From positions 1 to 35,354 of the IMG/VR virus record IMGVR_UViG_3300011335_000393: a stretch of 35,354 bases of DNA, one strand, 5' to 3'. How positions within the stretch are numbered: the stretch's first letter is position 1; the number at the start of each line of letters is the position of its first letter. The notes under the pieces were generated by a model. That model did not search any database. It saw only the letters and a program-made list of their open reading frames with translations, and was not told the DNA's origin. Of this stretch, positions 18,104 to 33,690 are shown one piece after another. The stretch comes from a virus (taxonomy: Duplodnaviria > Caudoviricetes). Position numbers and translations under genes: made by a program.

Positions 18104-18316
18104 TAGTATCACGGCCTCACCTAAGTCTTCTGGCGCATGGCCTGCCCGCAGCATGGCAAGCACTTTTTCCAATGCCTCCGCCGCGGCTGCCGCGTGGTCT
18201 GTCATTTCTTTATCCTTTTTATGCGGAGGGTATCCACCGGGATAGCAAATCATGCAATACCCGTTATGCCCTGTAAGGTCATTCCACTCACCATGCTCGC
18301 AAGATAGCAGTTTCAT
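18074..18316 (-). CDS. Hypothetical protein (alternative internal start at 18205)
   Basis: ATGA-coupled to the upstream gene; internal AAGGA..ATG gives a 43-aa form. Confidence 0.6.
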   Translation of the reverse strand: MKLLSCEHGEWNDLTGHNGYCMICYPGGYPPHKKDKEMTDHAAAAAEALEKVLAMLRAGHAPEDLGEAVILLGRLMARRT

Positions 18317-18504
18317 TTCTTCAGACCTTTCATAATCTGGACGCGCTCCCGCGCCGTCCGCATCGCAGAATAACGCTGATGCAACCGCCGGGCGATGGCA
18401 GGGCGCTTGTGCGTCTGTAACTCAGCGTCCAGCGCCTGCTTCAGTTCGTCTTCCGTAAGGTCGGACAGCACGGCAATCATCGACCGCCAGTTTAGTTTAC
18501 TCAT
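18313..18504 (-). CDS. Hypothetical protein
   Basis: 63 aa, GAGGA RBS, overlaps the helicase stop. Confidence 0.8.
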   Translation of the reverse strand: MSKLNWRSMIAVLSDLTEDELKQALDAELQTHKRPAIARRLHQRYSAMRTARERVQIMKGLKK

Positions 18505-19810
18505 TTTTTAATTCCTCTAATGCTATGTCGGACACCGCACGCTTGTCGTGCAGCGCCGCCCATATGCGTTCGTCAATACTCTTTTCGGTTAGCATCACAT
18601 AGACCCAGACATCTTTTGTCTGCCCGCTGCGGTGCAGGCGCCCGACAGTCTGCTCGTACAATTCCAGCGACCACGGCAACGACAGAAAGACCATGTGGCA
18701 TCCGCCATGCTGTAGGTTCAGGCCATGGCCTGCCGACTTAGGGTGGGCCAATAGCAACTCGACCTGACCCGCGTTCCAGTGTTCGATTATGTTGGGGTCA
18801 TCCATCGTCTTGGCGTGCGGGAAGCGGCGCTTCAGTTCTGCCAACTCTTCCTGATAGGTGTAGGCAACGATGGTGTTCGCCCGCTGGTTCTCCGCCAGCA
18901 ACTCTTCTAGCCTGTCAAACTTGTGGCTGCTGAACCATATCGAACCGGGGCCAGCGTCGCGGTTGTAGACAAATCCCGACGCCATCTGTTGCAACTTGGT
19001 CGTTACCGCGGCTGCGTTCAACGCTACCACTTGCTCTGCGCCGAAGCGCACGACATAGTCCCGCTTCATTCTTTCGTATGGCGCGCGGTCATCCAGCGGA
19101 ACCCGCACCTCTGTGACATGGCACGGCGGCAGCTTGTCCTTGTACTCGCCCGGCTCAAGCACGAACGTCGCAGGGCGGATGCGAGCCATGACCTGTTCAA
19201 GCGCGCCGGCTGCTGGAACCCATTGGCCAAAGTCGCGGTTGGTGCAGATGAAATACTGTTGCAGGAACGCACCCTTGGCACGGCCCAACAACTCTTGGTT
19301 GATTATCTTGCATTGACCGAAGACATCCTCAAGCCCGTTCGACGTAAATGATCCTGTCAGTCCCCACCTTATCCTCATCGTAGACATAATTTTCTCCATC
19401 GCCTTATAGCGTTTGCCCGACGGGTTCTTCAGCCGCGTCAGTTCGTCAAACACCACCCCATCAAAACTTGATAAATCTTTTAGTTTGTCCAAATTGTCGT
19501 AGTTGATGACCACCACGCTGGCGTTGCTTGCGATTGCTGCTGCGCGCTGCGCTGGCGGCCCGACAGCAAGCGCGGGGACAATGCTAGACCACTTGGGTGC
19601 TTCCACCGGCCAGACATCTGTACAGACACGCTTGGGCGCTACCACCAGCCAGCGTTTGACATGGCCATCGCGCAGCATCTCATCCATCGCTGCCAATGTG
19701 ATCGCGGTCTTGCCAGCGCCAACAGGCGCAAGGATCATGGCGCGGTCACGTTCGTACAAGAACGTCGCCGCTTGTTGCTGGTATGGCCTTAGCTGAAGCG
19801 TTTGAGCCAT
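18497..19810 (-). CDS. SNF2-like SF2 helicase
   Basis: LRPYQ, APVGAGKT, VVFDELT, LTGS, SAGHGLNLQ and QTVGRLHRSGQ; likely start ATG 19810. Confidence 0.92.
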   Translation of the reverse strand: MAQTLQLRPYQQQAATFLYERDRAMILAPVGAGKTAITLAAMDEMLRDGHVKRWLVVAPKRVCTDVWPVEAPKWSSIVPALAVGPPAQRAAAIASNASVVVINYDNLDKLKDLSSFDGVVFDELTRLKNPSGKRYKAMEKIMSTMRIRWGLTGSFTSNGLEDVFGQCKIINQELLGRAKGAFLQQYFICTNRDFGQWVPAAGALEQVMARIRPATFVLEPGEYKDKLPPCHVTEVRVPLDDRAPYERMKRDYVVRFGAEQVVALNAAAVTTKLQQMASGFVYNRDAGPGSIWFSSHKFDRLEELLAENQRANTIVAYTYQEELAELKRRFPHAKTMDDPNIIEHWNAGQVELLLAHPKSAGHGLNLQHGGCHMVFLSLPWSLELYEQTVGRLHRSGQTKDVWVYVMLTEKSIDERIWAALHDKRAVSDIALEELKNE

Positions 19811-20064
19811 GCATCTATGTCCTCTATCGACCACAAGCACGCGTAATGCTGCTTGGTGTGTGCCATCTCGTCTGAAAATATACGCTGCAATGCAGACAGC
19901 CGTCCGTTAGGCTGCTTGATCTCTACAAACCAAGCCTCACCGTTGGGCATACAAGCTATGCGGTCGGCAACGCCTATCTGCGTAACGCTGCGGAACTTAT
20001 AGGCAAAACCGCCCAATGCCCGCACACGTTTGCAAAAGTACCGCTCTATTTCTTTCTCAGTCAT
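19789..20064 (-). CDS. VRR-NUC domain nuclease (resolvase-like)
   Basis: MTEKEIE, GVADRI and FVEIK..GRLSALQ PD-(D/E)XK pattern. Confidence 0.9.
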   Translation of the reverse strand: MTEKEIERYFCKRVRALGGFAYKFRSVTQIGVADRIACMPNGEAWFVEIKQPNGRLSALQRIFSDEMAHTKQHYACLWSIEDIDAWLKRFS

Positions 20065-20073
20065 GCAAGAAGG

Positions 20074-20553
20074 CTACCTTATATTCCGTTTTGCTGCTGC
20101 GTCCTCATACGCGGCGGCGGCGGTTTCAATGTCATCGAACAAGCCTAAATAGACAACGTCGCCGCCTCTACATATGACTGCTTGGTAGCGGATCGTTCCA
20201 TCTTTTCGTTTTAAAACAGTAACACCTTTACGGCCAGAAGCCCCGCGACCTTTCGGGTCTAACGTCCTATTCAAATTATTTTGCGAAGATGAAACATCTC
20301 TTAAATTGCAAATGCGGTTATCGTCGCGCTCACGGTTTATGTGGTCTATAATTTCGCTGGGCCATTCGCCGTAAATGTACAGCCACGCTAAACGATGCGC
20401 GAAATACACGCGCCCCTTTATTTTTATTACGATATATCCTTTAGGGTCAGCGCGGCCTGACGGTCTAACCGGGTAGCGACCTACACGGTAAAAAAGACCT
20501 GTCGCCGCGTCATAAACAAATGTTTGGCGTAGTGTGATTGCATCTATCGTCAT
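20074..20553 (-). CDS. HNH homing endonuclease with AP2 domain
   Basis: AHRLAWLYIYGEWP, IDHINRERDDNRICNLR, SGRKGV and YLGLFD.IETAAAAY. Confidence 0.92.
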   Translation of the reverse strand: MTIDAITLRQTFVYDAATGLFYRVGRYPVRPSGRADPKGYIVIKIKGRVYFAHRLAWLYIYGEWPSEIIDHINRERDDNRICNLRDVSSSQNNLNRTLDPKGRGASGRKGVTVLKRKDGTIRYQAVICRGGDVVYLGLFDDIETAAAAYEDAAAKRNIR

Positions 20554-20560
20554 AGCCAGA

Positions 20561-20620
20561 ATCTTTGCATAAAATTTTATTGCTGTCTAGCCTTGTGCAA
20601 CAAAAAATAATGTGTATGGT
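20561..20620. promoter_or_regulatory. Divergent promoter region with two AT-rich operator-like sites
   Basis: Leftward TAGACA-N17-AAAGAT; rightward CTTGTG-N17-TATGGT; palindrome ATAAAATTTTAT at 20569-20580. Confidence 0.5.
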
Positions 20621-20650
20621 GGCCACTCAAACAGTAAAGTGAGGTACAGT

Positions 20651-21772
20651 ATGCAACATAGTAAGATAGTCGGCGGTTCGACCGCCAAGCGCGTCATAGC
20701 CTGCCCCGGCAGCGTGGCGCTTGTGGACACAGTTCCACCAAAGCCCAGCAGCAGCTACGCCGACGAAGGCACGCTCCTGCATGACACTATAGCTTCTATA
20801 TTAGAACGTGACGTTGATCCGTACAGCATGGTCGGCACAACATACGCTGATAGCGTACTGACCGAAGCGTTGGTGGATGACAAGCTGGTTCCCGCGCTGC
20901 GTGCGCTGGACGAGATAGACCCAAAGGGGGAGATGACTTATGCTGTTGAGAGCCGGGTTGGTTTTGGTGATTTTCTACCTGACGTTTTTGGTTCTACCGA
21001 TCTTCTTGGTCGCATTGGTGATAGAGCGGTCGTTCTGGATTGGAAGTTTGGCGATGGCGTGGCTGTTGAAGCCACCGAAAACGCCCAATTACTCTTCTAC
21101 GCTGCGGCGGCTAGGCGCACGCCGGATACGACATGGGCTTTTGAAGGAGCCAAAGAAGTAGAACTGATCATTGTACAACCCCCGTTTGTAAAGCGGTGGG
21201 TGACAACGCTAGACCGCGTGGACGCGTTTGAGAAAGAACTTGCCGCTGCCGTCAAGATTGCTGCGCGGCCAGACGCGCCGTTGGCATCAGGCGACCATTG
21301 CAAGTGGTGCGCGGCCAAGCCTGTTTGCCCTATCATGACAGGCGCTGTAGACCGCGCACTGAAAGTCCAGATGGAAGCACTGCCTGTCGATCAGATAGCG
21401 CACTATTTGGAGCAGGCGCCCATGATTGAGGCGTTCATTAAGGATTTGCAGCAGTTGGCGCATGGGCTTTTGGAAGCGGGACAGAAAGTCCCCGGCTGGA
21501 AGCTGGTCAACAAACGTGCAACAAGGCAGTGGACAAATGAGGATAAGGCTGTAGCCTTCATGTCTGCTGCCGGCGTAGAGGCATGGGCTGATCCCAAGCC
21601 GCTGTCGCCTGCACAAGCGGAAAAGGCTTTGAAGAAAGCCAAGATAGAATTGCCAGCGGACTTAATCGTCGCTGTCTCAAGTGGTTCAACCCTTGCGCCG
21701 GAAAATGATTCCCGGCCAGCGGTTTTACAAATCGGACAGATGCTTACCAAAGCTATGTCCAAAATCCAGTAA
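20651..21772 (+). CDS. PD-(D/E)XK (Cas4-like, DUF2800-type) exonuclease
   Basis: HS..GGSTAKRVIACPGS, EGTLLH, FGSTD, DWKFGDG, NAQL..YA and HCKWC..KPVC; GAGGT RBS before ATG 20651. Confidence 0.88.
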   Translation: MQHSKIVGGSTAKRVIACPGSVALVDTVPPKPSSSYADEGTLLHDTIASILERDVDPYSMVGTTYADSVLTEALVDDKLVPALRALDEIDPKGEMTYAVESRVGFGDFLPDVFGSTDLLGRIGDRAVVLDWKFGDGVAVEATENAQLLFYAAAARRTPDTTWAFEGAKEVELIIVQPPFVKRWVTTLDRVDAFEKELAAAVKIAARPDAPLASGDHCKWCAAKPVCPIMTGAVDRALKVQMEALPVDQIAHYLEQAPMIEAFIKDLQQLAHGLLEAGQKVPGWKLVNKRATRQWTNEDKAVAFMSAAGVEAWADPKPLSPAQAEKALKKAKIELPADLIVAVSSGSTLAPENDSRPAVLQIGQMLTKAMSKIQ

Positions 21773-21791
21773 CGTAAAAAGGTACAATAAA

Positions 21792-22454
21792 ATGTCGAAT
21801 ATCACTACTTTTGGCGGCGCTAACTTGCCGTCCGTTCAATCACTCTCTGGCGCTTTGCGTTCCATTCAGTCTGAAGTTGCCCCCGGTGGTACAGTCATCC
21901 TGAAAATGGACAAGACAGGCCATTGGGTTTTCGGTGCAGACCAGACCGAAGTTGAGGAAGGCAGCCTTTGGGCCGCTAACCCGTTCTCGTTCGTTCATGG
22001 CTATATTGCATGGGGTAACGGCGAAGTGCTGGCTGAGAAGCTAGTACCAGTGTCAGAGCCGCTGCCAGAGTTAGACCCAGCGCCATCAGGCGCAGCCCGC
22101 GGTTGGGAAATGCAAGTTGGCATGATGCTTGTATGCACCAACGGCGAAGACAAGGATATGCAGGCACGTTTCACGGCTACATCAGTCGGCGGCAAGCGCG
22201 CAGTGCAGGCATTGGCTGTTGCCATTGCTGATCAGGTCGAGAAAGACCAGACCAAGCCTGTGCCATTGCTCGAACTGAAGACTGAGCATTACCAGCACAA
22301 GACCTATGGCCGTATCTTTACACCTATCTTTGACATCACCGATTGGGTGTCTATGGATGCAAATACGGTTGAGAAATCAGATGATGCAGAGTTGGAAGTC
22401 GCTGCTGAACCTGAAGCCGCTGAAGGTGCGCGTCGCCGGCGTCGCGTAGCCTAA
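21792..22454 (+). CDS. Putative single-stranded DNA-binding protein
   Basis: Between nuclease and polymerase; aromatic beta-strands (YQHKTYGRIFTPIF) and acidic C-terminal tail; ATG 21792. Confidence 0.7.
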   Translation: MSNITTFGGANLPSVQSLSGALRSIQSEVAPGGTVILKMDKTGHWVFGADQTEVEEGSLWAANPFSFVHGYIAWGNGEVLAEKLVPVSEPLPELDPAPSGAARGWEMQVGMMLVCTNGEDKDMQARFTATSVGGKRAVQALAVAIADQVEKDQTKPVPLLELKTEHYQHKTYGRIFTPIFDITDWVSMDANTVEKSDDAELEVAAEPEAAEGARRRRRVA

Positions 22455-22466
22455 AGGGGCGTGAAA

Positions 22467-22491
22467 GCCGGGGCGTGTTGGGCGCTCCGGC
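22467..22491 (+). promoter_or_regulatory. GC-rich hairpin in polymerase leader
   Basis: GCCGGGGCG (22467-22475) / CGCTCCGGC (22483-22491); no U tract. Confidence 0.55.
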
Positions 22492-22516
22492 GAGTAGCGG
22501 AAGAGTGAGAACTTCT

Positions 22517-24472
22517 ATGTCTAAATTATGGGTTGACTTTGAAACGCGCAGCCGGTGCGACCTTCGCAGCCGCGGCGTGTACAACTACGCGCAGGACGCC
22601 AGCACTGACGTTCTGTGTATGTCATACGCATTTGATGACGAAGACGTGCAGACGTGGCTTCCCAGTGAGCCTTTCCCGCAGGCCGTCAAAGATCATAAAG
22701 GGCTGGTGTACGCGCACAACGCAGCGTTCGAGCGCCTGATATTCTGGTATGTCCTACAGGTCGAGTTTAAGCTGGAGCAGTTTTATTGCACCGCAGCACA
22801 AGCCCGTGGCAACTGCGCGCCGGGCAGCCTTGAGGATGTGGGCCGCTTCGCTGGCGCCACCATGAAGAAAGACCACCGTGGCGGACAACTGATCCGCCTG
22901 CTATCTATCCCGCAATCAGACGGCACATTCCGCGAAGACGCCAAGCTGATGCAGGAGATGGTTGACTATTGCGAACAGGACGTGCGGGCCATGCGTGCTA
23001 TAGCGCAGGCGCAGCGTCCGCTGTCCGACGAAGAGTTGGCAGACTACCATGTCAACGAGCGCATCAACGACCGCGGCGTGTTGCTTGACAGGTCATTGGC
23101 GCAGGCGGCTGTCCGCTACGCTGAAGCTGAACTGGCTGAGATACAAGACATTGTCGCAGAGATAACAAACGGCGAGATAAAGTCCGTCCGCAGCCCCAAG
23201 ATGAAGAAGTGGGTGCTGGACAGGGTAGGGCCGCAGGCGCTTGAACTGGCGACCATTTACAAGGACGGCGAACCTAAGCGAGCCATTGACAAGAACGTGC
23301 GGGCTAACTGGCTCACAATGGCAGGGGAAAATTCAGATGAAGTACCATCGGAAGTTGCGGAAGTCATCCAGTGCGCGGACGATCTGTGGGCATCGTCCGT
23401 TGCTAAATTCCAACGTGCGGCGGCGCTTGCTGACGAGGAGGATCATAAGGTTAGAGGAGCGTTCGTATTTTCAGGAGGAAGTGCTACTGGCCGTGCTTCA
23501 TCATTTGGGCTTCAAGTCCATAACTTCCCAAGAAAGTGTGCAGCCGACCCGGCATTAGTACGGCAGGCTATGGTGCGCGGCCACAGAATCGTTCCCGATC
23601 ATGGCCGCCGCGTAACTGACGTTCTAAAAGGTATGCTGCGCCCATCGCTGATGGCTGGCAAAGGCAAGCGGCTTGTGGTTGCCGATTGGGCAGCCATTGA
23701 AGCGCGGGTGACGCCGTGGGCGTCCAACAGTAGCTTTGGCGCAAACAAGCTGGACATCTTTGCCAAGGGCGAAGACGTGTACAAGCACAACGCTATGGCG
23801 ACATTCCATGTCGGTTACGGCGATGTCAACACAGACCAGCGCCAGATCGGCAAGGTTCAAGAGTTGGCGTGCGGCTTTGCCGGCGGCGTTGGTGCGTTCG
23901 CCAGCATGGGCCGCATCTACGGATTGCTGATGTCAGAGAGCGATGCAAAGCGCATGGTTGACGCATGGCGCAGGGCTAACAAGTGGGCTGTGCCTTACTG
24001 GTCTGGCCTTGAAGACACCTATATGCGTGCCATGCGAAATAAGAACCGTGAGTTTACAACGGGGCGCGTTACATATTTATTTGATGGATTGCATCTTTGG
24101 TATGCCCTTCCGTCTGGCCGTGTGTTATGTTATCCTTTCGCCCGTTTCGATGAGAAAGGTGACCTGACCTACGCGAAGGCTTCTTGGAAGCCAGCCGCTG
24201 ATGCTAAGGAGTGGCCAAGGGCGAGGCTATGGCGCGGTCTAGCGTGTGAAAACATCACACAGGCTATCGCCAACGACTTGCTGCGCTACGCCTTGCGGCA
24301 GTTGGACGATGTAGTTTTGCACATCCACGATGAAATCGTTTTGGAAGTGCCAGAAGAAGATGCAGAGGCTGCCGCAGCGCGGCTGGTGCAGATAATGTGT
24401 GAGCCGCCACCTTGGGCAGCAGGGCTTCCCCTGAACGCAGAGGTATCTATTATGGATCGTTATGGAAAATAA
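22517..24472 (+). CDS. DNA polymerase family A with 3'-5' exonuclease
   Basis: Exo DFET, HNAAFE, YCEQD; motif A DWAAIEAR, motif B RQIGKVQELACGF, motif C HIHDEI; ATG 22517. Confidence 0.95.
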   Translation: MSKLWVDFETRSRCDLRSRGVYNYAQDASTDVLCMSYAFDDEDVQTWLPSEPFPQAVKDHKGLVYAHNAAFERLIFWYVLQVEFKLEQFYCTAAQARGNCAPGSLEDVGRFAGATMKKDHRGGQLIRLLSIPQSDGTFREDAKLMQEMVDYCEQDVRAMRAIAQAQRPLSDEELADYHVNERINDRGVLLDRSLAQAAVRYAEAELAEIQDIVAEITNGEIKSVRSPKMKKWVLDRVGPQALELATIYKDGEPKRAIDKNVRANWLTMAGENSDEVPSEVAEVIQCADDLWASSVAKFQRAAALADEEDHKVRGAFVFSGGSATGRASSFGLQVHNFPRKCAADPALVRQAMVRGHRIVPDHGRRVTDVLKGMLRPSLMAGKGKRLVVADWAAIEARVTPWASNSSFGANKLDIFAKGEDVYKHNAMATFHVGYGDVNTDQRQIGKVQELACGFAGGVGAFASMGRIYGLLMSESDAKRMVDAWRRANKWAVPYWSGLEDTYMRAMRNKNREFTTGRVTYLFDGLHLWYALPSGRVLCYPFARFDEKGDLTYAKASWKPAADAKEWPRARLWRGLACENITQAIANDLLRYALRQLDDVVLHIHDEIVLEVPEEDAEAAAARLVQIMCEPPPWAAGLPLNAEVSIMDRYGK

Positions 24473-24482
24473 GGAGCAAGCG

Positions 24483-26831
24483 ATGAGTGAGGATCGCAAC
24501 AAGTTCATAGACTATATAGTTGGATTGGCCGCTGGTACAGTGGGCGAGACAGCTTTAGTCGTTCGTCAGAAGCCCACGCATGACAGCGATGGCAACCTGA
24601 TATACCACGCAGATGGTGCGCCAAAGGCAACCTTCCCTGCGTTCCTGCCCGAAAAGGCGCGCATGAAAGAAGGCGAGGCTTGGTATGTCAACACAGGCTC
24701 GTTCGTCGTTGACCGCTTTGTAGACGGCAAGCCCGCTGCTAAGTCGAGCAACGTCGAGTTTGTCCTGTTCATGATGCTGGATGACATCGGCACTAAGTCA
24801 AAGACGCCGCCGCTTGACCCGACATGGATACTGGAAACCAGCGAAGGTTCGTTCCAGTGGGGCTATGCGTTCAACGAACAGCCAAACAAGGGCGACTTCT
24901 GCGCTGCTATCAAAGCTATTGCAGATGCTGGCTACACTGATCCGGGCGCGACTAACGCTGTCCGCAACTGTCGTATTCCCGGCAGCGTCAACATGAAGCG
25001 CGGGCGCGGTGGCTTTCCTGCGCGGCTGGTCGAGTTTCACCCAGAGCTTGAATACACTTTAGAGCAGATTTGTAGTGCGCTGGGCGTCACACCAAAGGAA
25101 GGCGACACCGCAGAGTTTAAGGCTGTGCAGTTGCGCGACAGTGGGCTGGACAACGTCCTGACATGGTTGAGCGAAAAGAGCCTAGTCCTTAGCGCGCCCA
25201 ACACAGACGGCTGGTGCGCCATCGTCTGTCCTAACCATGAACATCACAGCGATGGCATGATCGAGGCGCGCTACAAGCCGCTGGATCGTTCGTTCTGTTG
25301 CTATCATGGGCACTGCCAAGACTTAGACAGCCGCACCTTCCTTGACTGGGTAGCGACTAACGGCGGCCCAAAGGTAACGCCGGGCTTGCGTGATGAGTTA
25401 ATCGCAGAGCGCATGGCATCCATGTATGACAAGATAGCGCCAACGGAAGCCTTCCCTGACGAAGCCGCAGCGCGCGTGCGTGAGGTCGAAAAGAAAGAAG
25501 CAGGACGGCTGGAACAAAGCGAGTGGTTTGATCGTTTCGCTTACATACAGTCTGATGACTGCTACTTTGACATGGTTACACGTCAAGAGATAGCCCGCAA
25601 CGTCTTCAACGCCCTGTTCCGTCACATTGACTGTCGTTCCATACACAACAAAAAACAGGCTGTGCGTGCGTCCGTCTATTACGATGAGCGCCGCCAAGAT
25701 CGCGGTGCGCCTGCACTGGCAGCGGTGACGTTTGCCGCCGGCGATGACGTTCTAGTAACGCGCGACGGATTGGTTTACGGCAACAGGTGGACAAATGCCC
25801 GTCCTGATGTAGCGGCCAGTGATGAGATTGCAGACCATGACGTTGAGACTTGGCTGGAGCATTGCCGCAATCTGGTCGTGGATGATGTCGAACTGGATCA
25901 CATCCTTGACGCTATGGCGTTCAAGATACAGCACCCTAACGTCAAGATTAACCATGCAATCCTAATTGGCGGCGACGAAGGCGTCGGCAAGGACAGTATG
26001 TTTCAGCCGTTCTTGTGGGCGCTTGGTGGTAAGCATTGGCGCAACAGATCAGTCATTGAGGCTGGCGGCTTGGACAGTCAATGGGGTTATTCGCTTGAGG
26101 CTGAAGTGGTCATCCTAAACGAACTAAAGGAACCAGAGGCGCGAGAGCGCCGCGCTATGGCTAACAAGCTAAAGCCACTCATCGCTGCGCCGCCTGAGAC
26201 GCTGTCCGTCAACCGTAAGGGGATGCACCCCTATGAGTTGGTCAATCGCCTAATGGTGGTTGCCTACACGAATGACCCGCTGCCGATCACATTGCCAACA
26301 CAAGATCGTCGATGGTTCTGCGTCTGGACACGCGCGCCGCGCATGACAACAGCAGCAGCTAATGCACTGTGGGCATGGTATGAGGCCGGCGGCTATGAGA
26401 AGTGCGCCGCTTGGCTGCACCAGCGCGACGTGTCGGCGTTCAACCCAGCGGCTGCGCCGCCAGTGACCGAATGGAAGCTGAACATGGTTGAGCATGGCAT
26501 GAGCGTAGCCGAAAGCTACCTTGTGGACATGATGCGGCTGCGGTCGGGCGTCTTTGCCTCTGGTGTCATTGGCGGGCCGTTCCATCGTATCTGTGACGCG
26601 CTGGCGATTAACGTGCCAGCCGGTGTTAAAGTCCCGCAAGCTGCGCTGCTTCATGCGTTGAAGGAAGCGGGCTGGGTTGACATGGGCCGCATTAACTCAA
26701 AAGATCACCCAAATAAGAAGCATATATTTGTCGCGCCTGATCTTGTTAAGAAACACGGCAAGTCAGACTTGCGCCGCATGGCGGAAGAATTGCCTAAGTC
26801 GAGCATTATGCCAAATTTAGGCAAGAATTGA
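24483..26831 (+). CDS. Primase-helicase (RepB-like primase, Zn finger, DUF5906-like P-loop NTPase)
   Basis: MMLDDIG, LETSEGSFQWGY, R.PGS; CPNHEHH..CYHGHC; GGDEGVGKD, ILNE, DRRW; AAGGAG RBS before ATG 24483. Confidence 0.88.
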   Translation: MSEDRNKFIDYIVGLAAGTVGETALVVRQKPTHDSDGNLIYHADGAPKATFPAFLPEKARMKEGEAWYVNTGSFVVDRFVDGKPAAKSSNVEFVLFMMLDDIGTKSKTPPLDPTWILETSEGSFQWGYAFNEQPNKGDFCAAIKAIADAGYTDPGATNAVRNCRIPGSVNMKRGRGGFPARLVEFHPELEYTLEQICSALGVTPKEGDTAEFKAVQLRDSGLDNVLTWLSEKSLVLSAPNTDGWCAIVCPNHEHHSDGMIEARYKPLDRSFCCYHGHCQDLDSRTFLDWVATNGGPKVTPGLRDELIAERMASMYDKIAPTEAFPDEAAARVREVEKKEAGRLEQSEWFDRFAYIQSDDCYFDMVTRQEIARNVFNALFRHIDCRSIHNKKQAVRASVYYDERRQDRGAPALAAVTFAAGDDVLVTRDGLVYGNRWTNARPDVAASDEIADHDVETWLEHCRNLVVDDVELDHILDAMAFKIQHPNVKINHAILIGGDEGVGKDSMFQPFLWALGGKHWRNRSVIEAGGLDSQWGYSLEAEVVILNELKEPEARERRAMANKLKPLIAAPPETLSVNRKGMHPYELVNRLMVVAYTNDPLPITLPTQDRRWFCVWTRAPRMTTAAANALWAWYEAGGYEKCAAWLHQRDVSAFNPAAAPPVTEWKLNMVEHGMSVAESYLVDMMRLRSGVFASGVIGGPFHRICDALAINVPAGVKVPQAALLHALKEAGWVDMGRINSKDHPNKKHIFVAPDLVKKHGKSDLRRMAEELPKSSIMPNLGKN

Positions 26832-26857
26832 CAACTGATATTGTGCGATGATATACT
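26828..26857 (+). promoter_or_regulatory. Near-consensus sigma70 promoter with extended -10 (drives candidate sRNA)
   Basis: TTGACA (26828-26833)-N18-TATACT (26852-26857), with TG at 26849-26850. Confidence 0.75.
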
Positions 26858-26863
26858 GATAAA

Positions 26864-26928
26864 GTCGGTGATGCTCCGCTGACCTTTTTAAGCCGCCGGT
26901 GTCTCACTCCACCGGCGGCTTTTATTTT
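26864..26928 (+). ncRNA. Candidate two-hairpin anti-Shine-Dalgarno small RNA
   Basis: Predicted start coincides with hairpin 1 GTCGGTG-ATGCTC-CGCTGAC. Hairpin 2 is AAGCCGCCGGTG-TCTCACTC-CACCGGCGGCTT plus U tail. Loops are complementary to phage RBSs. Confidence 0.65.
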
Positions 26929-26930
26929 AT
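26890..26930 (+). terminator. Intrinsic terminator (replication operon and sRNA)
   Basis: Perfect 12-bp stem, 8-nt loop, followed by TTATTTTAT. Confidence 0.88.
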
Positions 26931-27106
26931 TCGTCCCATGCTTCTTCAGCGTCTAAGATCAGTTCGCAGGGTGGGTATCGCAGATTGCTGACTTCAATGT
27001 CGGATATTACCCCCATAAAGGCTAGATGCTCCATCAAGCGGTAGGCCAGCGTAGCCTCTGCGCGTTTGTCGTAGTCCTCAAAGGCTTCTGCTTCTTCATC
27101 GGTCAT
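26927..27106 (-). CDS. Hypothetical acidic protein
   Basis: MTDEEAEAFEDY..., ATGA-coupled start at 27106. Confidence 0.7.
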   Translation of the reverse strand: MTDEEAEAFEDYDKRAEATLAYRLMEHLAFMGVISDIEVSNLRYPPCELILDAEEAWDE

Positions 27107-27369
27107 GCTGCTTTCCAATCTTTAGGATAGGGGACTGCTCGATAGCTGGTCATGTGAAGTCTACCATCTTCGCCCCAGTGTTCGTTTATGGTTGAGCCGT
27201 CATCGTTCAGCAAAACGGCAAGGTCGCCATAAATATGTAACGGCTTTCCTGTCTTGGGGTCGATGCGGTAGCGTATGTCGGCAGGGTCTATGAACCCGCC
27301 CTCCGGCCAAGGGTCATCCCGCCATACTGGCCGTGCGGCGTGAATGTATACTGGTATTTTGTCCGTCAC
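27103..27369 (-). CDS. Hypothetical protein
   Basis: GTG start with GAGGAG RBS; GTGA overlap. Confidence 0.75.
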   Translation of the reverse strand: MTDKIPVYIHAARPVWRDDPWPEGGFIDPADIRYRIDPKTGKPLHIYGDLAVLLNDDGSTINEHWGEDGRLHMTSYRAVPYPKDWKAA

Positions 27370-27569
27370 TGGTTTTGCTCCTCTAAATTAAGTTTGTATA
27401 TTTTCCCCGGTCTAGTCCCTTCAGGCACAGCGATCTCAAACGAACCCGGAAGCGCACGCCAATGCGTCCCATCTGGTATTCTGGATAGCGTTGCCATAGT
27501 GGTCTTGCCAGCCGCAGGGCTATCGCCGTAGTCGCGGGTCGTAACCATAGTGCATCTATATTCGGTCAT
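27366..27569 (-). CDS. Hypothetical protein
   Basis: MTEYRCTMV..., AAGGA RBS, ATGA overlap at 27566-27569. Confidence 0.7.
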   Translation of the reverse strand: MTEYRCTMVTTRDYGDSPAAGKTTMATLSRIPDGTHWRALPGSFEIAVPEGTRPGKIYKLNLEEQNQ

Positions 27570-27837
27570 TTGCTTTGTTCCTTGATGTAGTCGGCGCGCT
27601 TGACGCTGTCTGCTAACTGGCGCTGGTTGTAAGCCAAAAACCAATCCGCAATCTTGGTGCGTTCGATCTCCATGCCTTGCCGGATACCTTGTTCAGCAAG
27701 GCGCATCCATACAGTGCGATCTAAGTCGCCTGTTAAATAACGCTGGCTATCGTCATTAGTCTGCCGTTCCGCTTGGATGGAACAGATAGTGCGGGCTGCT
27801 TTTGTAATTTGTTCATCAGTCATTTTCTTTGTTCCTT
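27565..27837. repeat. 19-bp direct repeat pair (18/19) flanking ORF 27566-27823
   Basis: GTCATTTGCTTTGTTCCTT at 27565-27583 and GTCATTTTCTTTGTTCCTT at 27819-27837. Confidence 0.85.
27566..27823 (-). CDS. Hypothetical protein
   Basis: 85 aa, AAGGA RBS. Confidence 0.75.
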   Translation of the reverse strand: MTDEQITKAARTICSIQAERQTNDDSQRYLTGDLDRTVWMRLAEQGIRQGMEIERTKIADWFLAYNQRQLADSVKRADYIKEQSK

Positions 27838-28003
27838 ATTTACGTAAAAGATTTTCTAATTCGCGGATCGCCCACTGGATGCCTTGAATTTCTACGCCCA
27901 TGTCATGCAGGCCGTGTGCGTCCTTGGCGTGTAAAAACACTTCTGACATATCCCAGCAGACGGCTTCGCGCTTCTGTAGGGCTTCAATGCGTTCTTTGAT
28001 CAT
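27836..28003 (-). CDS. Hypothetical 55-aa protein (not in ORF track)
   Basis: MIKERIEALQKREAVCWDMSEVFLHAKDAHGLHDMG...; GAGGTGA upstream. Confidence 0.72.
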   Translation of the reverse strand: MIKERIEALQKREAVCWDMSEVFLHAKDAHGLHDMGVEIQGIQWAIRELENLLRK

Positions 28004-28004
28004 G

Positions 28005-28190
28005 TCACCTCATCCTTGTGATTGTGGTCAAGCCATCCTTAGTTCGACAGATAAAATGCTTATCGTGCCGCTGCCCGTATTGTGATGTGTTGCGGCTTGT
28101 GCGCTTTGCATCGCCCTTGTTAGCGGCTGGCATAGTGGCGCTATCGCCTACGGCCATCGTTCCCATCGGATAGAACATAGGGCGGCTCAC
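28005..28190 (-). CDS. Hypothetical small basic protein
   Basis: GTG 28190 with GGGAG RBS; YPMGTMAVGDSATMP. Confidence 0.7.
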   Translation of the reverse strand: MSRPMFYPMGTMAVGDSATMPAANKGDAKRTSRNTSQYGQRHDKHFICRTKDGLTTITRMR

Positions 28191-28318
28191 TTGCCTTGCT
28201 CCCGTTCTTTGCGGCGCTCTGCAAACGTCTTTCCGTCTAGCCCGCGCAGAGGCCATGCGCTTTCGGACGATACGCGATATTTGCGCCCTAAAGGGGCGGC
28301 TTGGGGTGTCTTAATCAT
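28187..28318 (-). CDS. Hypothetical 43-aa protein (not in ORF track)
   Basis: MIKTPQAAPLGRKYRVSSESAWPLRGLDGKTFAERRKEREQGK; GGAG upstream; GTGA-coupled downstream. Confidence 0.65.
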   Translation of the reverse strand: MIKTPQAAPLGRKYRVSSESAWPLRGLDGKTFAERRKEREQGK

Positions 28319-28322
28319 TTTC

Positions 28323-28661
28323 TTATAGCTCCACTGTTGTCTTAGGTTTAGATCGTTTGTCGTTTAGCCTAGCCAGCCAATATTCTTGCTGCGGCCCGTG
28401 TGATCGTTTGGCATGGTATTTGAATAGCGCCATAGCTAGGTCATCATATCCTTTCCGCTTGTGCGTCACTATCAGCGGCGATGGCATCATCGGTTTATGA
28501 TCGGGACTGTAGAAGCGGCGGCGGTTATCCGCTGTCACTTCGATGATGTCGCGCAGTGTCAGGTTTAGTCCGTGTTCGTTGTTAACGTAGGCGGCGATGA
28601 CGCTGCGGTCGCTGATATAGCTGGCTAGGTGTTGGATTTGCTTTCGCAGTGCGTATTCCAT
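28323..28661 (-). CDS. Hypothetical protein
   Basis: Start ATG 28661 (MEYALRKQI) with AAGGAG RBS and TAATG coupling. Confidence 0.75.
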   Translation of the reverse strand: MEYALRKQIQHLASYISDRSVIAAYVNNEHGLNLTLRDIIEVTADNRRRFYSPDHKPMMPSPLIVTHKRKGYDDLAMALFKYHAKRSHGPQQEYWLARLNDKRSKPKTTVEL

Positions 28662-28816
28662 TAGTTTTGCTCCTTCTTGATTGTTAGCAGTTCGCGGCTT
28701 TCGCGGATCCATGCCCTACGGAACCAATGCCTTTCGGCATTTGTGCGCCATAGGATAAACAAGGTCGTGATTTGCATGGCTAGCAGCGTCACGATTGCGT
28801 ATTTCTCAGGTGTCAT
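28661..28816 (-). CDS. Small membrane protein, 51 aa (not in ORF track)
   Basis: MTPEKYAIVTLLAMQITTLFILWRTNAERHWFRRAW...; GGAGG RBS. Confidence 0.7.
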   Translation of the reverse strand: MTPEKYAIVTLLAMQITTLFILWRTNAERHWFRRAWIRESRELLTIKKEQN

Positions 28817-28876
28817 TTAATCCTCCAGTAATAAGGTCAAAAGGAATAATGCGGCTCCGGCGATTAACGCCGTCAT
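28817..28876 (-). CDS. 19-aa hydrophobic peptide (not in ORF track)
   Basis: MTALIAGAALFLLTLLLED; GAGG RBS; ATGA overlap upstream and TAAATG junction downstream. Confidence 0.55.
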   Translation of the reverse strand: MTALIAGAALFLLTLLLED

Positions 28877-29103
28877 TTGGCCTCTAGTTGTGCGTGCAGG
28901 GTGTTGGCCTGTTCCATCCAACTGTCGAGCCGCTTGTTTAGCTCGTCGATCTCAGTCTTGGCGTCCTCTAGTTCTGCTTCGACGTTCAGCAGTTCGCTAA
29001 GGCGTTCTGCCAGCACAACAGCCAGTTCGTGATTGCGGTCTAATGCCGTGCGGACTAATTCACCGTCCGATAGCATCCGTAGATAGTTGCGGTCATGTGT
29101 CAT
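28873..29103 (-). CDS. Hypothetical coiled-coil protein
   Basis: 76 aa, GAGGA RBS, heptad pattern. Confidence 0.78.
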   Translation of the reverse strand: MTHDRNYLRMLSDGELVRTALDRNHELAVVLAERLSELLNVEAELEDAKTEIDELNKRLDSWMEQANTLHAQLEAK

Positions 29104-29365
29104 GGTTCAGTTTCCTCTTGCTTTAGCGATTGCTTGGTCAATGACATTGCACATAGCTACACTTGCGGCGTCATGCCCGGGCATAGTGTTATATTGTCCA
29201 ACCCACATACGGGCCTTAATAAGCGCATCTAACATATCAGGCGCGGCGGCGACTAGGTGCGCTTCGCGCTCCAACGTTTCAGCGTCAATGCCGGGCGTAT
29301 AGCCACCTTGCATTAGATATTCGTCGATCAGGTATAATGTTTGCGTAGTCATGGTTCAGTTTCCT
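29099..29365. repeat. 18-bp exact direct repeat pair flanking ORF 29107-29352
   Basis: GTCATGGTTCAGTTTCCT at 29099-29116 and 29348-29365. Confidence 0.9.
29107..29352 (-). CDS. Hypothetical protein with A.L.AAAPDMLDAL...AIAKARG motif
   Basis: 81 aa; motif is widespread in small phage early proteins. Confidence 0.8.
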   Translation of the reverse strand: MTTQTLYLIDEYLMQGGYTPGIDAETLEREAHLVAAAPDMLDALIKARMWVGQYNTMPGHDAASVAMCNVIDQAIAKARGN

Positions 29366-29445
29366 TTTAATGTGATTATGATTGATGTGATTGATAGCAC
29401 CAGAACGGCGGCAAAGCCGGCTGTGGCGATAATGTGCGCGATCAC
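29356..29445 (-). CDS. 29-aa single-TM peptide (not in ORF track)
   Basis: MIAHIIATAGFAAVLVLSITSIIITLKGN; GTG start, GGGAG RBS, GTGA overlap. Confidence 0.62.
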   Translation of the reverse strand: MIAHIIATAGFAAVLVLSITSIIITLKGN

Positions 29446-29600
29446 GCGAACCGCTCCCATCCGAAACGGCTGTCAGCCCAATGTGTTTGACCGACCTCTA
29501 GATCGCGTAGTTGCTCAACGATCTGATCGTCTGTCCGCTTGACCTGACCGACAAAATAATTGTCGCTGTCAGCGTCTATAAGATAAAATTTCTTTTCCAT
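29442..29600 (-). CDS. Hypothetical 52-aa protein (not in ORF track)
   Basis: MEKKFYLIDADSDNYFVGQ...FGWERFA; RBS AGGAGTGAGACACT. Confidence 0.72.
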   Translation of the reverse strand: MEKKFYLIDADSDNYFVGQVKRTDDQIVEQLRDLEVGQTHWADSRFGWERFA

Positions 29601-29625
29601 AGTGTCTCACTCCTATTGATTGTGG

Positions 29626-29775
29626 TTATGCTGCGCGGCGTTGTGCCGCTCTTTGCGCGCCTTGCTGCGTTTTGTAGCGCGTTGCGCTGCTAGGTATGCG
29701 TCCGTCGATAGTGACATACCAATAGGTGACGCCATTATGCAAAACGTGGCTTTCGATTCCGTAAACAATGGTCAT
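29626..29775 (-). CDS. Hypothetical 49-aa protein (not in ORF track)
   Basis: MTIVYGIESHVLHNGVTYWYVTIDGRIP..YKTQQGAQRAA; ATGA overlap. Confidence 0.68.
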   Translation of the reverse strand: MTIVYGIESHVLHNGVTYWYVTIDGRIPSSATRYKTQQGAQRAAQRRAA

Positions 29776-29987
29776 GCTATTGCCCCTTTAAATGCGTTTA
29801 TAACGTCTGCGCCGTTGCCAAGTGTAAAGACATGAACGCGGCAATCGGTGCACCCGTGCACGTCTGTTAGCGTTGCGATAATGCGTTGCGCTTGTTCCAT
29901 GCTGGCAATGCCAGCCGTTTCGGATACTAAAAGCGTTTCGTCATCGCTATGCGGCGGCTTGCCCCAAATGATATATTCGCGGTTCAT
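29772..29987 (-). CDS. Hypothetical protein
   Basis: 71 aa, ATGA-coupled on both sides. Confidence 0.75.
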   Translation of the reverse strand: MNREYIIWGKPPHSDDETLLVSETAGIASMEQAQRIIATLTDVHGCTDCRVHVFTLGNGADVINAFKGAIA

Positions 29988-30199
29988 GCTGCGAACTCTT
30001 TAATGTTGCATTTTAAAACTGTGACGCGGCGGCTGTTTAATGTGCCGCTTGCGGTTACAGGCTTGCGGTCGAACTCCACAGGGCAGCACATTGATGGAAT
30101 AGAACTCCACCCAACAGAACTAACAATAGTTGCGGGGCAATAGTCGCTACCAAATATGCGGGCCAATACGCGGTTACCGGCTTTGTATGTATGTGTCAT
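29984..30199 (-). CDS. Hypothetical protein, first gene of the leftward operon (possible SH3-like barrel)
   Basis: Start ATG 30199 with GGAG RBS; YKAGNRVLAR...YCPATIV. Confidence 0.72.
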   Translation of the reverse strand: MTHTYKAGNRVLARIFGSDYCPATIVSSVGWSSIPSMCCPVEFDRKPVTASGTLNSRRVTVLKCNIKEFAA

Positions 30200-30220
30200 T
30201 TCGTTCACTCCGTTGTTGAT

Positions 30221-30263
30221 GCCCTCTTATGTGCCCTCAAACTAATACCGTCAAGCCCTCTTA
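30221..30263 (-). promoter_or_regulatory. Putative early leftward promoter with three GCCCTC direct repeats
   Basis: TTGACG (30254-30249)-N17-CATAAG (30231-30226); GCCCTC at 30221, 30233 and 30255. Confidence 0.6.
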
Positions 30264-30267
30264 AAAG

Positions 30268-30276
30268 TTATCCACA
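30268..30276 (+). promoter_or_regulatory. Consensus DnaA box
   Basis: TTATCCACA exact match in the non-coding region; single copy. Confidence 0.45.
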
Positions 30277-30299
30277 GGTAAATAACATTTATACCGAAT

Positions 30300-30670
30300 A
30301 GTTTTGGCTCTGGCATTTCACCGGGTGAGAATTGCCTGGTGATCGCGCGGCTATATAGTCGTCATTTGTGGCGTCATTTTGCGGGGGTAAATGACGTTCC
30401 GAAAAATGGCTTGAATGCGCCTGTCACAAACAATCGGACGTTAAATAGTTATGGATATGATATTTGTTTATGAATAAAAAATAGAGGTATATAGATACCC
30501 GTGTAATTTCACGGCGACTTCAAACGTCATGACTACATGACTATTTGACGTGATGCAAAAATGTCACACTCACCCAACAATCGACGTTGACGTTAACGTC
30601 AAGCGTTGTGCAGGCGACTTCGATCACGATGGCAACATGACGTCTGTCACTGTGTTAATACAGTAACACA
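30300..30670. other. Putative replication origin (repeat-flanked AT-rich core)
   Basis: No ORF; GTCAT/ATGAC repeats on both sides of an AT-rich block (~30441-30495); 29-bp repeat at 100-bp period; hairpins. Confidence 0.5.
30587..30602. promoter_or_regulatory. Perfect 16-bp palindrome (protein binding site candidate)
   Basis: TTGACGTTAACGTCAA. Confidence 0.55.
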
Positions 30671-30907
30671 CCGACACAGCTAGCCAGCCAATATGTTTTT
30701 CTTAATGCTAACGGCTCGCAATAAGGGAAAGGCCAACCAAAAATCCAGCACATAGAACAAAAGCAGAACGCTGCTGGCAGGGGGTGGCCCCCCCACAGGG
30801 CCGAGCGCCGCGTGGCTGACACGGTCACGGTGCGTGAACAATTTTTTTATTTGTAGAATGTAAGAGCAATTTATTTTTTTTTTAAAATGTCACTGCACCA
30901 AAGCCTG

Positions 30908-30936
30908 TTGCGTATCTGCGCTCAGTAGATTATTGT
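30908..30936 (+). promoter_or_regulatory. Putative terS promoter (leaderless start)
   Basis: TTGCGT-N17-TATTGT, 7 nt before ATG 30944; no SD. Confidence 0.5.
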
Positions 30937-30943
30937 GCAGCTA

Positions 30944-31441
30944 ATGACATTCTACTCACTGCCATTTACACCCGAACGTACCGAGGCTACCGAGTCGCGG
31001 TTAGAGTCTATTTATGAAGCGGCCAAGTATGGGCTAAAGGGTGACAGCCTCGCTATGGCGTCTGGACTGACACCGCGGCAGTTCCGCGTGCTGGCGGATC
31101 AAGACCCGCTGGTCGAGATGGCTGAGATCAAGGGCCGGGCTGACGGCGAGTACACCGCGGCTAAGACGCTGCACGAAGCGGCACGCGATGGCGACGCTAA
31201 GGCTGCGCTGGAAATACTCAAGCATCAGCACGGCTGGGTAGCCAAGCAGCAGATCGACGTGAACATCGACCAACAGATAAGCATTACAGGCGCACTGGAA
31301 AAAGCCCAGCAGCGCGTCATCGAAGGGACGTATCTAGAAATACCCCAGCTAGAGGATAACTCGAATGCAAGCACCGATATACAGCGCATCGGAAGAAATG
31401 GAATTGATGGCAAGGTTGTGGAGTCCGTCTCTAAAGGATGA
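30944..31441 (+). CDS. terS: Terminase small subunit
   Basis: Upstream of and overlapping terL; HTH-like N-terminus, ARDGDAKAALEILKHQHGW helix and beta-strand QIDVNIDQQISI. Confidence 0.75.
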   Translation: MTFYSLPFTPERTEATESRLESIYEAAKYGLKGDSLAMASGLTPRQFRVLADQDPLVEMAEIKGRADGEYTAAKTLHEAARDGDAKAALEILKHQHGWVAKQQIDVNIDQQISITGALEKAQQRVIEGTYLEIPQLEDNSNASTDIQRIGRNGIDGKVVESVSKG

Positions 31442-32900
31442 CCCACTAGCATTTGTCCTGTACACATTCCCGTGGGGCCAAGCTGGCACGCCGCTGGAGA
31501 ACTTCCCCGGCCCGCGTAAATGGCAGCGGCAGATACTAGCTGACTTGCGTGACCACATCAAAGAGAACAACGGCAAGGTTGACTTCGCCACAGCGCGGAT
31601 GGCGATTGCATCAGGACGCGGTATTGGTAAGTCCGCCCTAGTCTCATGGCTGACGATATGGATGCTATCGTCAAGGATCGGCAGCACTACCATCGTGTCG
31701 GCAAACTCCGAAGCGCAGTTGCGGTCGGTAACATGGGCAGAAATTACAAAGTGGCTGGCGATGTCGCTCAACAGTCACTGGTTCGAGATAGCCGCCACGC
31801 GGATCATGCCAGCCAAGTGGCTGACCGAACTGGTCGAGCGCGACCTGAAGAAAGGCACGCGCTACTGGTCAGTCGAGGGCCGGCTGTGGTCGGAAGAAAA
31901 CCCTGACGCGTACGCAGGGGTTCACAACTTCGACGGTGTGATGCTGATCTTCGACGAAGCCAGCGGTATTCCAGATAGTATCTGGTCAGTGAGTGACGGT
32001 TTCTTCACAGAGAACACACCGCACAGGTTCCATCTGGCGTTCTCCAACCCACGGCGCAACACAGGCTATTTCTACGAAACCTTCCACAGCAAGCGGGCGT
32101 TCTGGTCAACGCGGGTGATTGACGCACGCGATGTCGAGGGTACAGACAAACACCTGTATCAGCGCATCATTGATGAATACGGGCCAGACAGCTACCAAGC
32201 CAGTGTCGAAGTCTACGGTAACTTCCCCAGTGAAGGTGACGATCAGTTCATCGGCAGCAATCTGGTCGATGACGCCATGAAGCGGCCACCCATCAAAGAT
32301 GACAGCGCGCCCATCGTCATAGGTGTAGACCCTGCACGCTTTGGGGCGGATGCTACGGTCATCGCCATACGGCGGGGTCGTGACATTCTAGAGTTGCGGA
32401 GACACCGCGGCGCTGACACGATGGAAGTGGCTGGCTACGTCATCGACGCGATAGAGCAATTCAAGCCTGCACTGGTCTGCATTGACGAAGGCGGGCTAGG
32501 CGCAGGCGTCGTGGATCGGCTGAAAGAACAGCGGTACAAGATACGCGGCGTAAACTTCGGCAACAAAGCCAAGAACCAGATAATGTGGGGCAACAAGCGC
32601 GCAGAGATGTGGGGCGCCATGCGTGACTGGCTACGCACAGGCCACATCCCGACAGACAGGTTCCTGAAGACAGACCTTATCAGCCCGCGCACTAAGCCTG
32701 ATAGTAAGGGTACGCTGTTCCTTGAAAGCAAGAAAGATATGAAGTCACGCGGGCTGGCGTCACCTGACGCAGCGGACGCCATAGCGGTCACGTTTGCCTT
32801 TCCTGTAGCATCACAGGATTTTCGACAAGGACGCGTTGACAGACGCTCTTCAAGCGGGTATTCGCCCGCTGGAGTTTCTACAAGCTGGATGGGCAGTTAA
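31365..32900 (+). CDS. terL: Terminase large subunit
   Basis: Walker A SGRGIGKS, Walker B LIFDEA, motif III FSNP, nuclease IGVDPAR and SPDAADA. Confidence 0.96.
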   Translation: MQAPIYSASEEMELMARLWSPSLKDDPLAFVLYTFPWGQAGTPLENFPGPRKWQRQILADLRDHIKENNGKVDFATARMAIASGRGIGKSALVSWLTIWMLSSRIGSTTIVSANSEAQLRSVTWAEITKWLAMSLNSHWFEIAATRIMPAKWLTELVERDLKKGTRYWSVEGRLWSEENPDAYAGVHNFDGVMLIFDEASGIPDSIWSVSDGFFTENTPHRFHLAFSNPRRNTGYFYETFHSKRAFWSTRVIDARDVEGTDKHLYQRIIDEYGPDSYQASVEVYGNFPSEGDDQFIGSNLVDDAMKRPPIKDDSAPIVIGVDPARFGADATVIAIRRGRDILELRRHRGADTMEVAGYVIDAIEQFKPALVCIDEGGLGAGVVDRLKEQRYKIRGVNFGNKAKNQIMWGNKRAEMWGAMRDWLRTGHIPTDRFLKTDLISPRTKPDSKGTLFLESKKDMKSRGLASPDAADAIAVTFAFPVASQDFRQGRVDRRSSSGYSPAGVSTSWMGS

Positions 32901-33166
32901 TGGCAGACAAGAAAAAATCTGTGTCGTTGTCCGTAGGCCGTGGTGAGAAGTTGCCTGTGTCTAAGGGCGCGGGACTGACTGCCGCTGGTAGAGCAAAGTA
33001 TAACGCTGCAACAGGCAGCAATCTAAAGGCACCTGCGCCCAGCCCGAAGACAAAGGCTGACGCAGGACGCAAAGCGTCATTCTGCGCGCGTATGGGTGCA
33101 GTGGCTGCCAAGGCTAAAGATGGCGAACGTGCCAAAGCAAGTTTGAGAAGGTGGAAATGCCCATGA
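32900..33166 (+). CDS. Small basic hypothetical protein
   Basis: 88 aa, K/A/R-rich (GLTAAGRAKYN..GSNLKAP..RKASFCARM); TAATG-coupled to terL. Confidence 0.82.
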   Translation: MADKKKSVSLSVGRGEKLPVSKGAGLTAAGRAKYNAATGSNLKAPAPSPKTKADAGRKASFCARMGAVAAKAKDGERAKASLRRWKCP

Positions 33167-33321
33167 AACCCGGTCTATATGCCAACATCCACGCCAAGAA
33201 AGCCCGCATTGCCGCTGGCTCTGGCGAGAAAATGCGTAAAGTAGGCACTAAGGGCGCCCCCACCGCCAAGGCTTTCAAAGAAAGCGCCAAGACAGCCAAA
33301 CCAGCTAAGAAGGGTAAGTAA
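33163..33321 (+). CDS. Small basic 52-aa protein (not in ORF track)
   Basis: MKPGLYANIHAKKARIAAGSGEKMRK...KGAPTAKAFKESAKTAK; ATGA overlap. Confidence 0.8.
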   Translation: MKPGLYANIHAKKARIAAGSGEKMRKVGTKGAPTAKAFKESAKTAKPAKKGK

Positions 33322-33543: not shown

Positions 33544-33544
33544 A

Positions 33545-33685: not shown

Positions 33686-33690
33686 CCACA

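Follow-up and report, generated by a model that had tools for sequence, protein, structure and literature searches.

What might be transcribed from a promoter that stands between two convergent operons and faces no open reading frame? The question arises in the window, the whole 35,354-nt stretch of DNA analysed here, in which a rightward exonuclease-ssb-polymerase-primase operon meets small early ORFs on the - strand that converge on the primase end. An earlier note on this DNA had proposed that the promoter drives a two-loop small RNA (sRNA) that pairs with the ribosome sites of replication and early genes. Conservation, covariation and element-less controls, all read from sequence, now back that proposal. 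The locus comprises:

24483..26831, + strand: primase-helicase (phrog_1156; RepB_primase and DUF5906), upstream neighbour of the element and its main predicted target
26828..26857, + strand: sigma-70-type promoter (TTGACA, 18-nt spacer with extended TG, TATACT)
26863..26926, + strand: predicted sRNA of ~62-64 nt, its start placed from the -10 box
26864..26883, + strand: hairpin 1 (HP1), loop AUGCUC(C), with seed UGCUCC at 26872-26877, the complement of GGAGCA
26890..26926, + strand: hairpin 2 (HP2) and intrinsic terminator, loop GUCUCACUCC, with seed CUCACUCC at 26903-26910, the complement of (GG)AGUGAG

The primase, a member of a large family (2285 matches), likely has its true start at 24483. 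The -35 box (26828-26833) overlaps its stop TGA, and TG-A-TATACT occupies 26849-26857. The promoter had been described as the most consensus-like one found, with no ORF ahead of it, and this was confirmed: with 11 of 12 consensus positions it is the best of 13 matches in 17000-35354, where shuffles yield 13.9 matches at the 9-of-12 threshold of the scan. A terminator does close the unit, the HP2 stem-loop (26890-26921) being followed by a T run. The fold of the + strand reached -33.2 kcal/mol (z -7.3), as good as which was none of 200 shuffles, and both loops were unpaired in the structure prediction. The sequence thus carries the traits of the predicted sRNA class, namely its own promoter and intrinsic terminator and no ORF.

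The promoter, the two hairpins and the terminator recur behind the primase in one clade of 35-39 kb podoviruses, whose primases are 68-93% identical. In 79 of the 80 primase loci collected first, the stop codon of the primase is followed by the element; the remaining locus is truncated. Later scans split the phages into five groups: clade A, to which the window belongs; clade B, with the same two loops and the promoter within the last primase codons; clade C, which keeps loop 2 and differs in the first hairpin loop, for which no clear target was found; the switch lineage (L104, L138), with a new loop; and element-less kin (51-64% identity), in which mostly a plain terminator follows the primase. 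In a quick tree built from 54 primases, the phages with the element fall into a single clade (29 rows, SH-aLRT 99), and the switch lineage is nested inside it. The promoter pattern TTG[AC]N2-N18-TA was present in 105 of 110 distinct element regions (A 58/58, B 24/28, C 20/21, switch lineage 3/3) versus 3 of 105 element-less ones. In clade C (L083-L097) both the promoter and the first hairpin overlap the primase coding end, and the early operon is rearranged upstream of the exonuclease. Twelve distinct clade A elements (L009, L012, L040, L064, L079 and others) have an extra module between the hairpins, which looks like a partial duplicate of hairpin 1. Among element-less phages, L158, L160, L205, L208, L220 and L512 carry short tandem direct repeats right after the primase stop, possibly origin iterons.

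Every copy that a model built from the element scored above 27 bits in the phage set was linked to the primase, and the model gave no match above 22 bits elsewhere in the element-less genomes G029-G040. A degenerate pattern gave 30 matches in IMG/VR, of which 27 lie beside this primase, one lies at a contig end with the same sequence and two are unrelated. A cellular homologue was sought with model R1 in 121 sphingomonad genomes and rejected: 25 genomes gave matches of at most 35 bits, and the 10 inspected were ordinary terminators.

The loops are near-invariant across the clade while the stems vary and covary. An alignment was made of 34 elements: that of the window, 28 of the 32 clade A variants with two hairpins, and 5 of 23 variants from clades B and C. 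In it, 96.7% of cells were paired and 11 of 18 pairs showed two-sided changes, which was equalled in 0 of 500 shuffles and approached by no slid control; four clade A variants and the 12 three-hairpin forms are omitted, and kinship inflates the pair-change counts. It had also been claimed that hairpin 1 relies on G-U pairs and folds only on the + strand. This held, with 59 G-U versus 2 A-C cells in HP1, and HP1 was absent from the - strand fold of the window. After the stem, 5-7 of 8 positions belong to a T-tract on the + strand versus 2-5 on the - strand. The preference for G-U over A-C, together with this U-tract, fits an RNA of the + strand.

These strand features bear on the idea that the - strand, which displays GGAGCA and GGAGUGAG in its loops, is a decoy that draws a CsrA-like or phage-encoded protein away from the ribosome sites it binds. 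Read-through from the early operon would show the same motifs as the mRNAs do, and termination on the - strand looks weak. Against this stand the fold of HP1, confined to the + strand, and the promoter and U-tract, which point the same way, so that we regard a decoy as very improbable. A promoter-like site on the - strand (26805-26834), which shares bases with the -35 box, would drive transcription antisense to the end of the primase; being kept in just 24 of 49 clade A regions, it also speaks against a decoy. The early operon ends 5 bases from hairpin 2 (26890-26927, - strand), with a poor U-tract on that strand. Its read-through could give a complete antisense copy able to titrate away the sRNA at an early stage of infection.

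Which transcripts might a + strand RNA recognise? Complements of the loops lie at the following starts in the window:

20638..20644, + strand: loop-2 site AGTGAGG at the ribosome site of the DUF2800 exonuclease (start 20651)
22503..22510, + strand: loop-2 site GAGTGAGA at the ribosome site of DNA polymerase (start 22517)
24473..24491, + strand: primase start region, GGAGCA in the ribosome site (24473-24478) and GAGTGAG over codons 1-3 (24485-24491)
27376..27381, - strand: loop-1 site GGAGCA before an early ORF (start 27369)
28186..28191, - strand: loop-2 site AGTGAG before an early ORF (start 28178)
28668..28673, - strand: loop-1 site GGAGCA before an early ORF (start 28661)
29602..29613, - strand: loop-2 site GGAGTGAGACAC before an early ORF (start 29600)
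30205..30211, - strand: loop-2 site GGAGTGA before the first called early ORF (start 30199)

With hand-checked starts, loop complements of at least 6 nt were found at 8 of 24 non-late starts, those of exonuclease, polymerase, primase and five early genes, compared with 1 of 25 late ones. When the loops were randomised with CTCC kept, they matched a mean of 2.0 starts, giving P=0.006 for the window, and the claim that the loops complement the starts of polymerase, primase and at least five early genes is borne out. The companion claim, that no match was seen at the late structural ribosome sites inspected, holds for the extended seed, which is almost absent there, and does not hold for plain GGAG, which late sites do contain. 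The proposal that late genes avoid GGAG was rejected, with plain GGAG in 16-22% of late sites in the main groups. As plain GGAG in late genes is alike everywhere, at ~17% of sites, the extended seed alone discriminates. A conserved 12-nt complementarity at 29613-29602 was likewise rejected; beyond 8 nt the match is fortuitous, as GGAGTGAGACAC sites persist in relatives whose loop reads GTCCTCACTCC.

The same bias was measured in the window and 39 relatives with genes called by a simple in-house caller (G024 was omitted, G039 was read to 40 kb, and genes spanning 20 kb cuts were lost). Seeds occurred at 73 of 293 non-late versus 8 of 385 late starts in clade A and at 69 of 237 versus 3 of 273 in clade B, and the non-late excess was present in each of the 23 clade A and B genomes. 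The 12 element-less genomes gave 6 of 247 non-late versus 12 of 361 late starts. When hexamers were ranked by how well they separate non-late from late starts, by protein family and blind to the loop sequences, GGAGCA came first of 829 in clade A and first of 876 in clade B, versus 1030th of 1108 in element-less genomes. GGAGTGA was found at 14 of 186 early starts in clade A and at 0 of 160 in clade B. Loop 1 of clade B is mostly TTTGCTCC, and GGAGCAA stands at 36 of its 160 early starts. On the other hand, loop 1 of clade A usually pairs just 6 nt of GGAGCAA, which counts against an sRNA, and the seeds are short (6-9 nt).

The firmest of the predicted loop-site links is that of loop 2 with the replication operon. 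AGTGAG was present at the primase start in all 54 distinct loop-2 starts, in neither of the two of the switch lineage and in 1 of 61 element-less ones. At the polymerase site it was present in 43 of 44 loop-2 phages, the single miss being a parsing artefact, versus 2 of 51 element-less phages. In the primase the motif is written into the codons: Ser2 is AGT in 24 of 25 representatives, and AGT makes up 6% of primase Ser codons. Several observations run against the sRNA reading. The exonuclease loop-2 site is kept in just 22 of 40 loop-2 starts, loop 1 matches the primase site in just 11 of 24 clade B starts, and the element-less L452 has GGAGTGAG at its primase. Predicted duplex energies with own and foreign polymerase sites separated modestly (-12.9 versus -10.5 kcal/mol).

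Two other explanations can be weighed here. The hairpins could form the 3′ terminus of the replication mRNA and work in cis, by contacting the start regions of primase, polymerase and exonuclease within that transcript; the promoter would then be secondary. The strongest conserved sites do lie on the transcript that ends at the element's terminator, and the primase start has both sites. However, a dedicated promoter is kept even against coding constraint, and the early-gene sites are on another transcript; action in cis is therefore judged improbable. We give equally little credence to the second explanation, that these are tandem terminators between convergent operons and that cassette recombination spread the ribosome-site motifs as habits of a lineage, their match to the loops being coincidental or historical. 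HP2 is a textbook terminator, CUCC pairs with any GGAG, the early sites share flanks outside the seed, and the L452 site exists without an element. Against it, the loops are conserved while the stems vary, element-less kin mostly have plain terminators with the promoter motif in the 3 of 105 regions noted above, and the single-copy polymerase and primase sites, including the rare Ser codon, track the loop.

If the loops read these sites, the two should change together, and the earlier note had named such covariation as a check. Judged by their sequences, the nested lineage L104/L138 changed its loop and its polymerase site together. Its loop 1 is TTTCCCCTCC and its loop 2 is gone; its polymerase site is GAGGGG in 2 of 2 phages versus 0 of 95 others, and AGTGAG is lost at polymerase, primase and exonuclease. 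Moreover, the loop of L147 is lengthened to CCCTCACTTCCC and its primase site reads GGGAAGTGAGG, a joint shift of loop and site. Against this, the primase site of the switch lineage, AGGG(G)AAA, is found as well at 3 of 24 primase starts of ordinary clade B phages and at 2 of 61 of element-less ones. The large counts given above are not independent, because the tree shows one gain, one switch and one shift behind the loop-site link. The co-change also bears on a reading of the element as a single-stranded DNA signal, an origin or primase recognition hairpin. The element adjoins the primase-helicase gene and its hairpins could also form in single-stranded DNA, yet such a signal leaves the promoter, the U-tract and the co-change with distant ribosome sites unexplained, and we consider it hardly credible.

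The element itself, the covariation of its stems, its strand and its promoter motif are directly supported, as is the fact that loops and sites occur together and change together. From these, the conserved unit likely makes an RNA of ~62 nt whose two loops are predicted to block the phage's own primase, polymerase, exonuclease and many early starts. A host sigma-70 promoter would drive the RNA, which is perhaps also made as the 3′ end of the replication mRNA. Loop 2 would mainly cover AGUGAG(G) at polymerase and primase and loop 1 GGAGCA(A) at early genes, and pairing over the Shine-Dalgarno region or the first codons would exclude the ribosome. Since the loops mirror the ribosome sites of replication and early genes and hardly any late one, the RNA is likely an sRNA that damps replication as infection proceeds. 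Its output would scale with genome copies and thus provide negative feedback on replication, and translation would be handed over to late genes, which are without seeds.

Several roles had been offered for such an RNA. Replication feedback or an early-to-late switch fits best, while immunity or a carrier state is less likely. The latter is the main rival: the same RNA and pairing could serve immunity, the exclusion of superinfecting phages or the control of copy number while the phage persists as a carrier or plasmid, like the C4 and CI RNAs. The predicted targets are precisely those genes on which a genome, whether newly arrived or resident, depends first, the promoter is of host type, and a head-gene relative is a prophage in a Rhizorhabdus isolate (capsid 84%, head-closure 72% identity). 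However, no integrase was found in the 95%-complete window, and its ORFs, which were scanned separately, include no integrase, repressor or partition family, in agreement with the claim that the genome has no recognisable repressor. Nor was any found in 130 of the 189 non-late families of element-bearing phages, a scan that left out 59 mostly short families and gave one match to a D5-like regulator. No close primase was present in the 401 sphingomonad genomes searched or in the genome of the Rhizorhabdus prophage. Immunity types usually diversify. Two points lower the odds of immunity, namely loops that barely change throughout the clade and the absence of any integrase, repressor or partition gene from these scans; we regard it as rather unlikely, although less so than the other alternatives.

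The 35-kb record contains P22-like head genes. The portal gene is apparently split between the contig ends (33691-35354 and 1-762), so the record is probably a near-complete permuted genome. No cultured close relative was found among 50,697 phage records. Besides the Rhizorhabdus prophage, Burkholderiaceae bins also carry matches, at 67-70%. T at -7 of the promoter was present in 12 of 42 clade A and 1 of 22 clade B regions. Its frequent absence resembles the Alphaproteobacteria, as outlined in PMC7703639, and the pattern hints at an alphaproteobacterial host.

The element was then set beside known RNAs. A search of Rfam gave no match at E<=10 over 26828-26930; this includes the cuckoo/alpha-r14 and c4 (RF01695) models, which also had no match at gathering score in the stretches of 5 relatives. 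The CI RNA of phage P4 pairs in trans with phage mRNA through two separate single-stranded segments. The c4 RNA of P1/P7 is similar to the element in being a phage RNA, and is described as an antisense RNA whose two single-stranded segments pair in trans with phage mRNA (10.1101/2020.03.17.996009). In contrast to c4, the element consists of two plain hairpins with its own promoter, ~eight predicted targets and no sign of lysogeny. The sites of c4 lie upstream of an antirepressor gene, whereas those of the element stand before primase, polymerase, exonuclease and small early ORFs. Neither the window ORFs nor the scanned non-late families gave an antirepressor family.

Like AbcR and cuckoo, the element would be a short RNA of several hairpins, in which the stems vary while the CU-rich anti-Shine-Dalgarno loops are conserved, unpaired and directed at many translation starts. 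AbcR1/2 (alpha-r15) of Alphaproteobacteria are outlined as pairing with many translation starts through such loops (PMC7143759), and cuckoo/NfeR1 (alpha-r14), also of Alphaproteobacteria, as adjacent hairpins with the loop motif CCUCCUCCC (PMC4615179). The element has two adjacent hairpins with variable stems, or three in 12 variants, within the 2-4 of alpha-r14, but its loops carry UGCUCC and CUCACUCC in place of CCUCCUCCC in each. It has two anti-Shine-Dalgarno loops, as alpha-r15 has two CU-rich motifs, but is ~62 nt long with two stem-loops, compared with three stem-loops in 114-120 nt. The AbcR class binds Hfq and represses ABC transporter mRNAs, whereas the predicted targets here are the phage's own replication and early genes with no host transporters among them; unlike both families, the element is phage-encoded and has two different loops. 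The mycobacterial 6C sRNA, whose C-rich loops bind several mRNAs, including that of the helicase gene dnaB, chaperone-free (PMC6486639), shares C-rich loops and several mRNA targets, and differs in being chromosomal and actinobacterial, with other loops and no phage context.

Lambda OOP, P22 sar, PLE SviR, lambda PreS and PAK_P3 sRNA1/2 are phage or satellite sRNAs that regulate development or replication (PMC12197685, PMC4933390). Some are antisense in cis to a single target, others act on genes of the host or helper, and others again have no known target; in the accessible parts of these sources none is described as a multi-target anti-Shine-Dalgarno repressor of its own replication operon. 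The element has conserved accessible seeds complementary to distant translation starts, which would place it in the broad class of trans-acting base-pairing sRNAs. It appears to work like the AbcR/cuckoo and C4 RNAs, yet differs from each in defining traits. The RNA was not found described in the literature searched, including the accessible parts of 10.1101/2022.04.08.487710, PMC2864571, PMC5737381 and 10.1101/2023.10.13.562163, and the motif may sit among the unnamed candidates of the IMG/VR survey outlined in PMC10690425. The regulator is of a known kind and does not amount to a categorically new system. As a candidate sRNA, the element is real and conserved, and its support is unusually good.

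In many phages dependent on the RNA polymerase of the host, no regulator can be recognised that would time the passage from early to late expression or shut off replication. The genomes studied here allow a candidate for such a regulator to be read directly, along with its seeds, its targets and compensatory variants that arose naturally. A broader proposal, which we hold tentatively and at slightly less than an even chance, is that apparently lytic phages run a protein-free developmental switch, made of a tiny RNA and a two-word code set in their ribosome sites and even in primase codons, by which gene dosage would shut off replication and early translation, exempting late genes and with loop and addresses re-codable together. 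If true, multi-target anti-Shine-Dalgarno sRNA control would extend from bacterial metabolism to phage development, and loops that mirror non-late ribosome sites would give a search rule for similar phage RNAs.

Two further structures were observed near ribosome sites. Type II hammerhead ribozymes (RF02276, 37-39 bits), none of which was seen in the window, were present in the early regions of 3 of the 5 stretches scanned from relatives, and each lies shortly before the ribosome site of an early gene:

L266, 5273-5344, + strand: hammerhead RF02276
L280, 1435-1504, + strand: hammerhead RF02276
L262, 9292-9364, - strand: hammerhead RF02276

A second conserved structure lies at 22456-22498 (+ strand), between the ssb-like gene and polymerase and directly before the loop-2 site. 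It consists of GAAAGC, a GC-rich hairpin with a free loop and then GAGTAGC, had no Rfam match and resembles what we take to be a bulged-G/loop E motif. It was present in 57 of 57 distinct element-bearing regions versus 9 of 74 others, and is possibly an autoregulatory or processing site.
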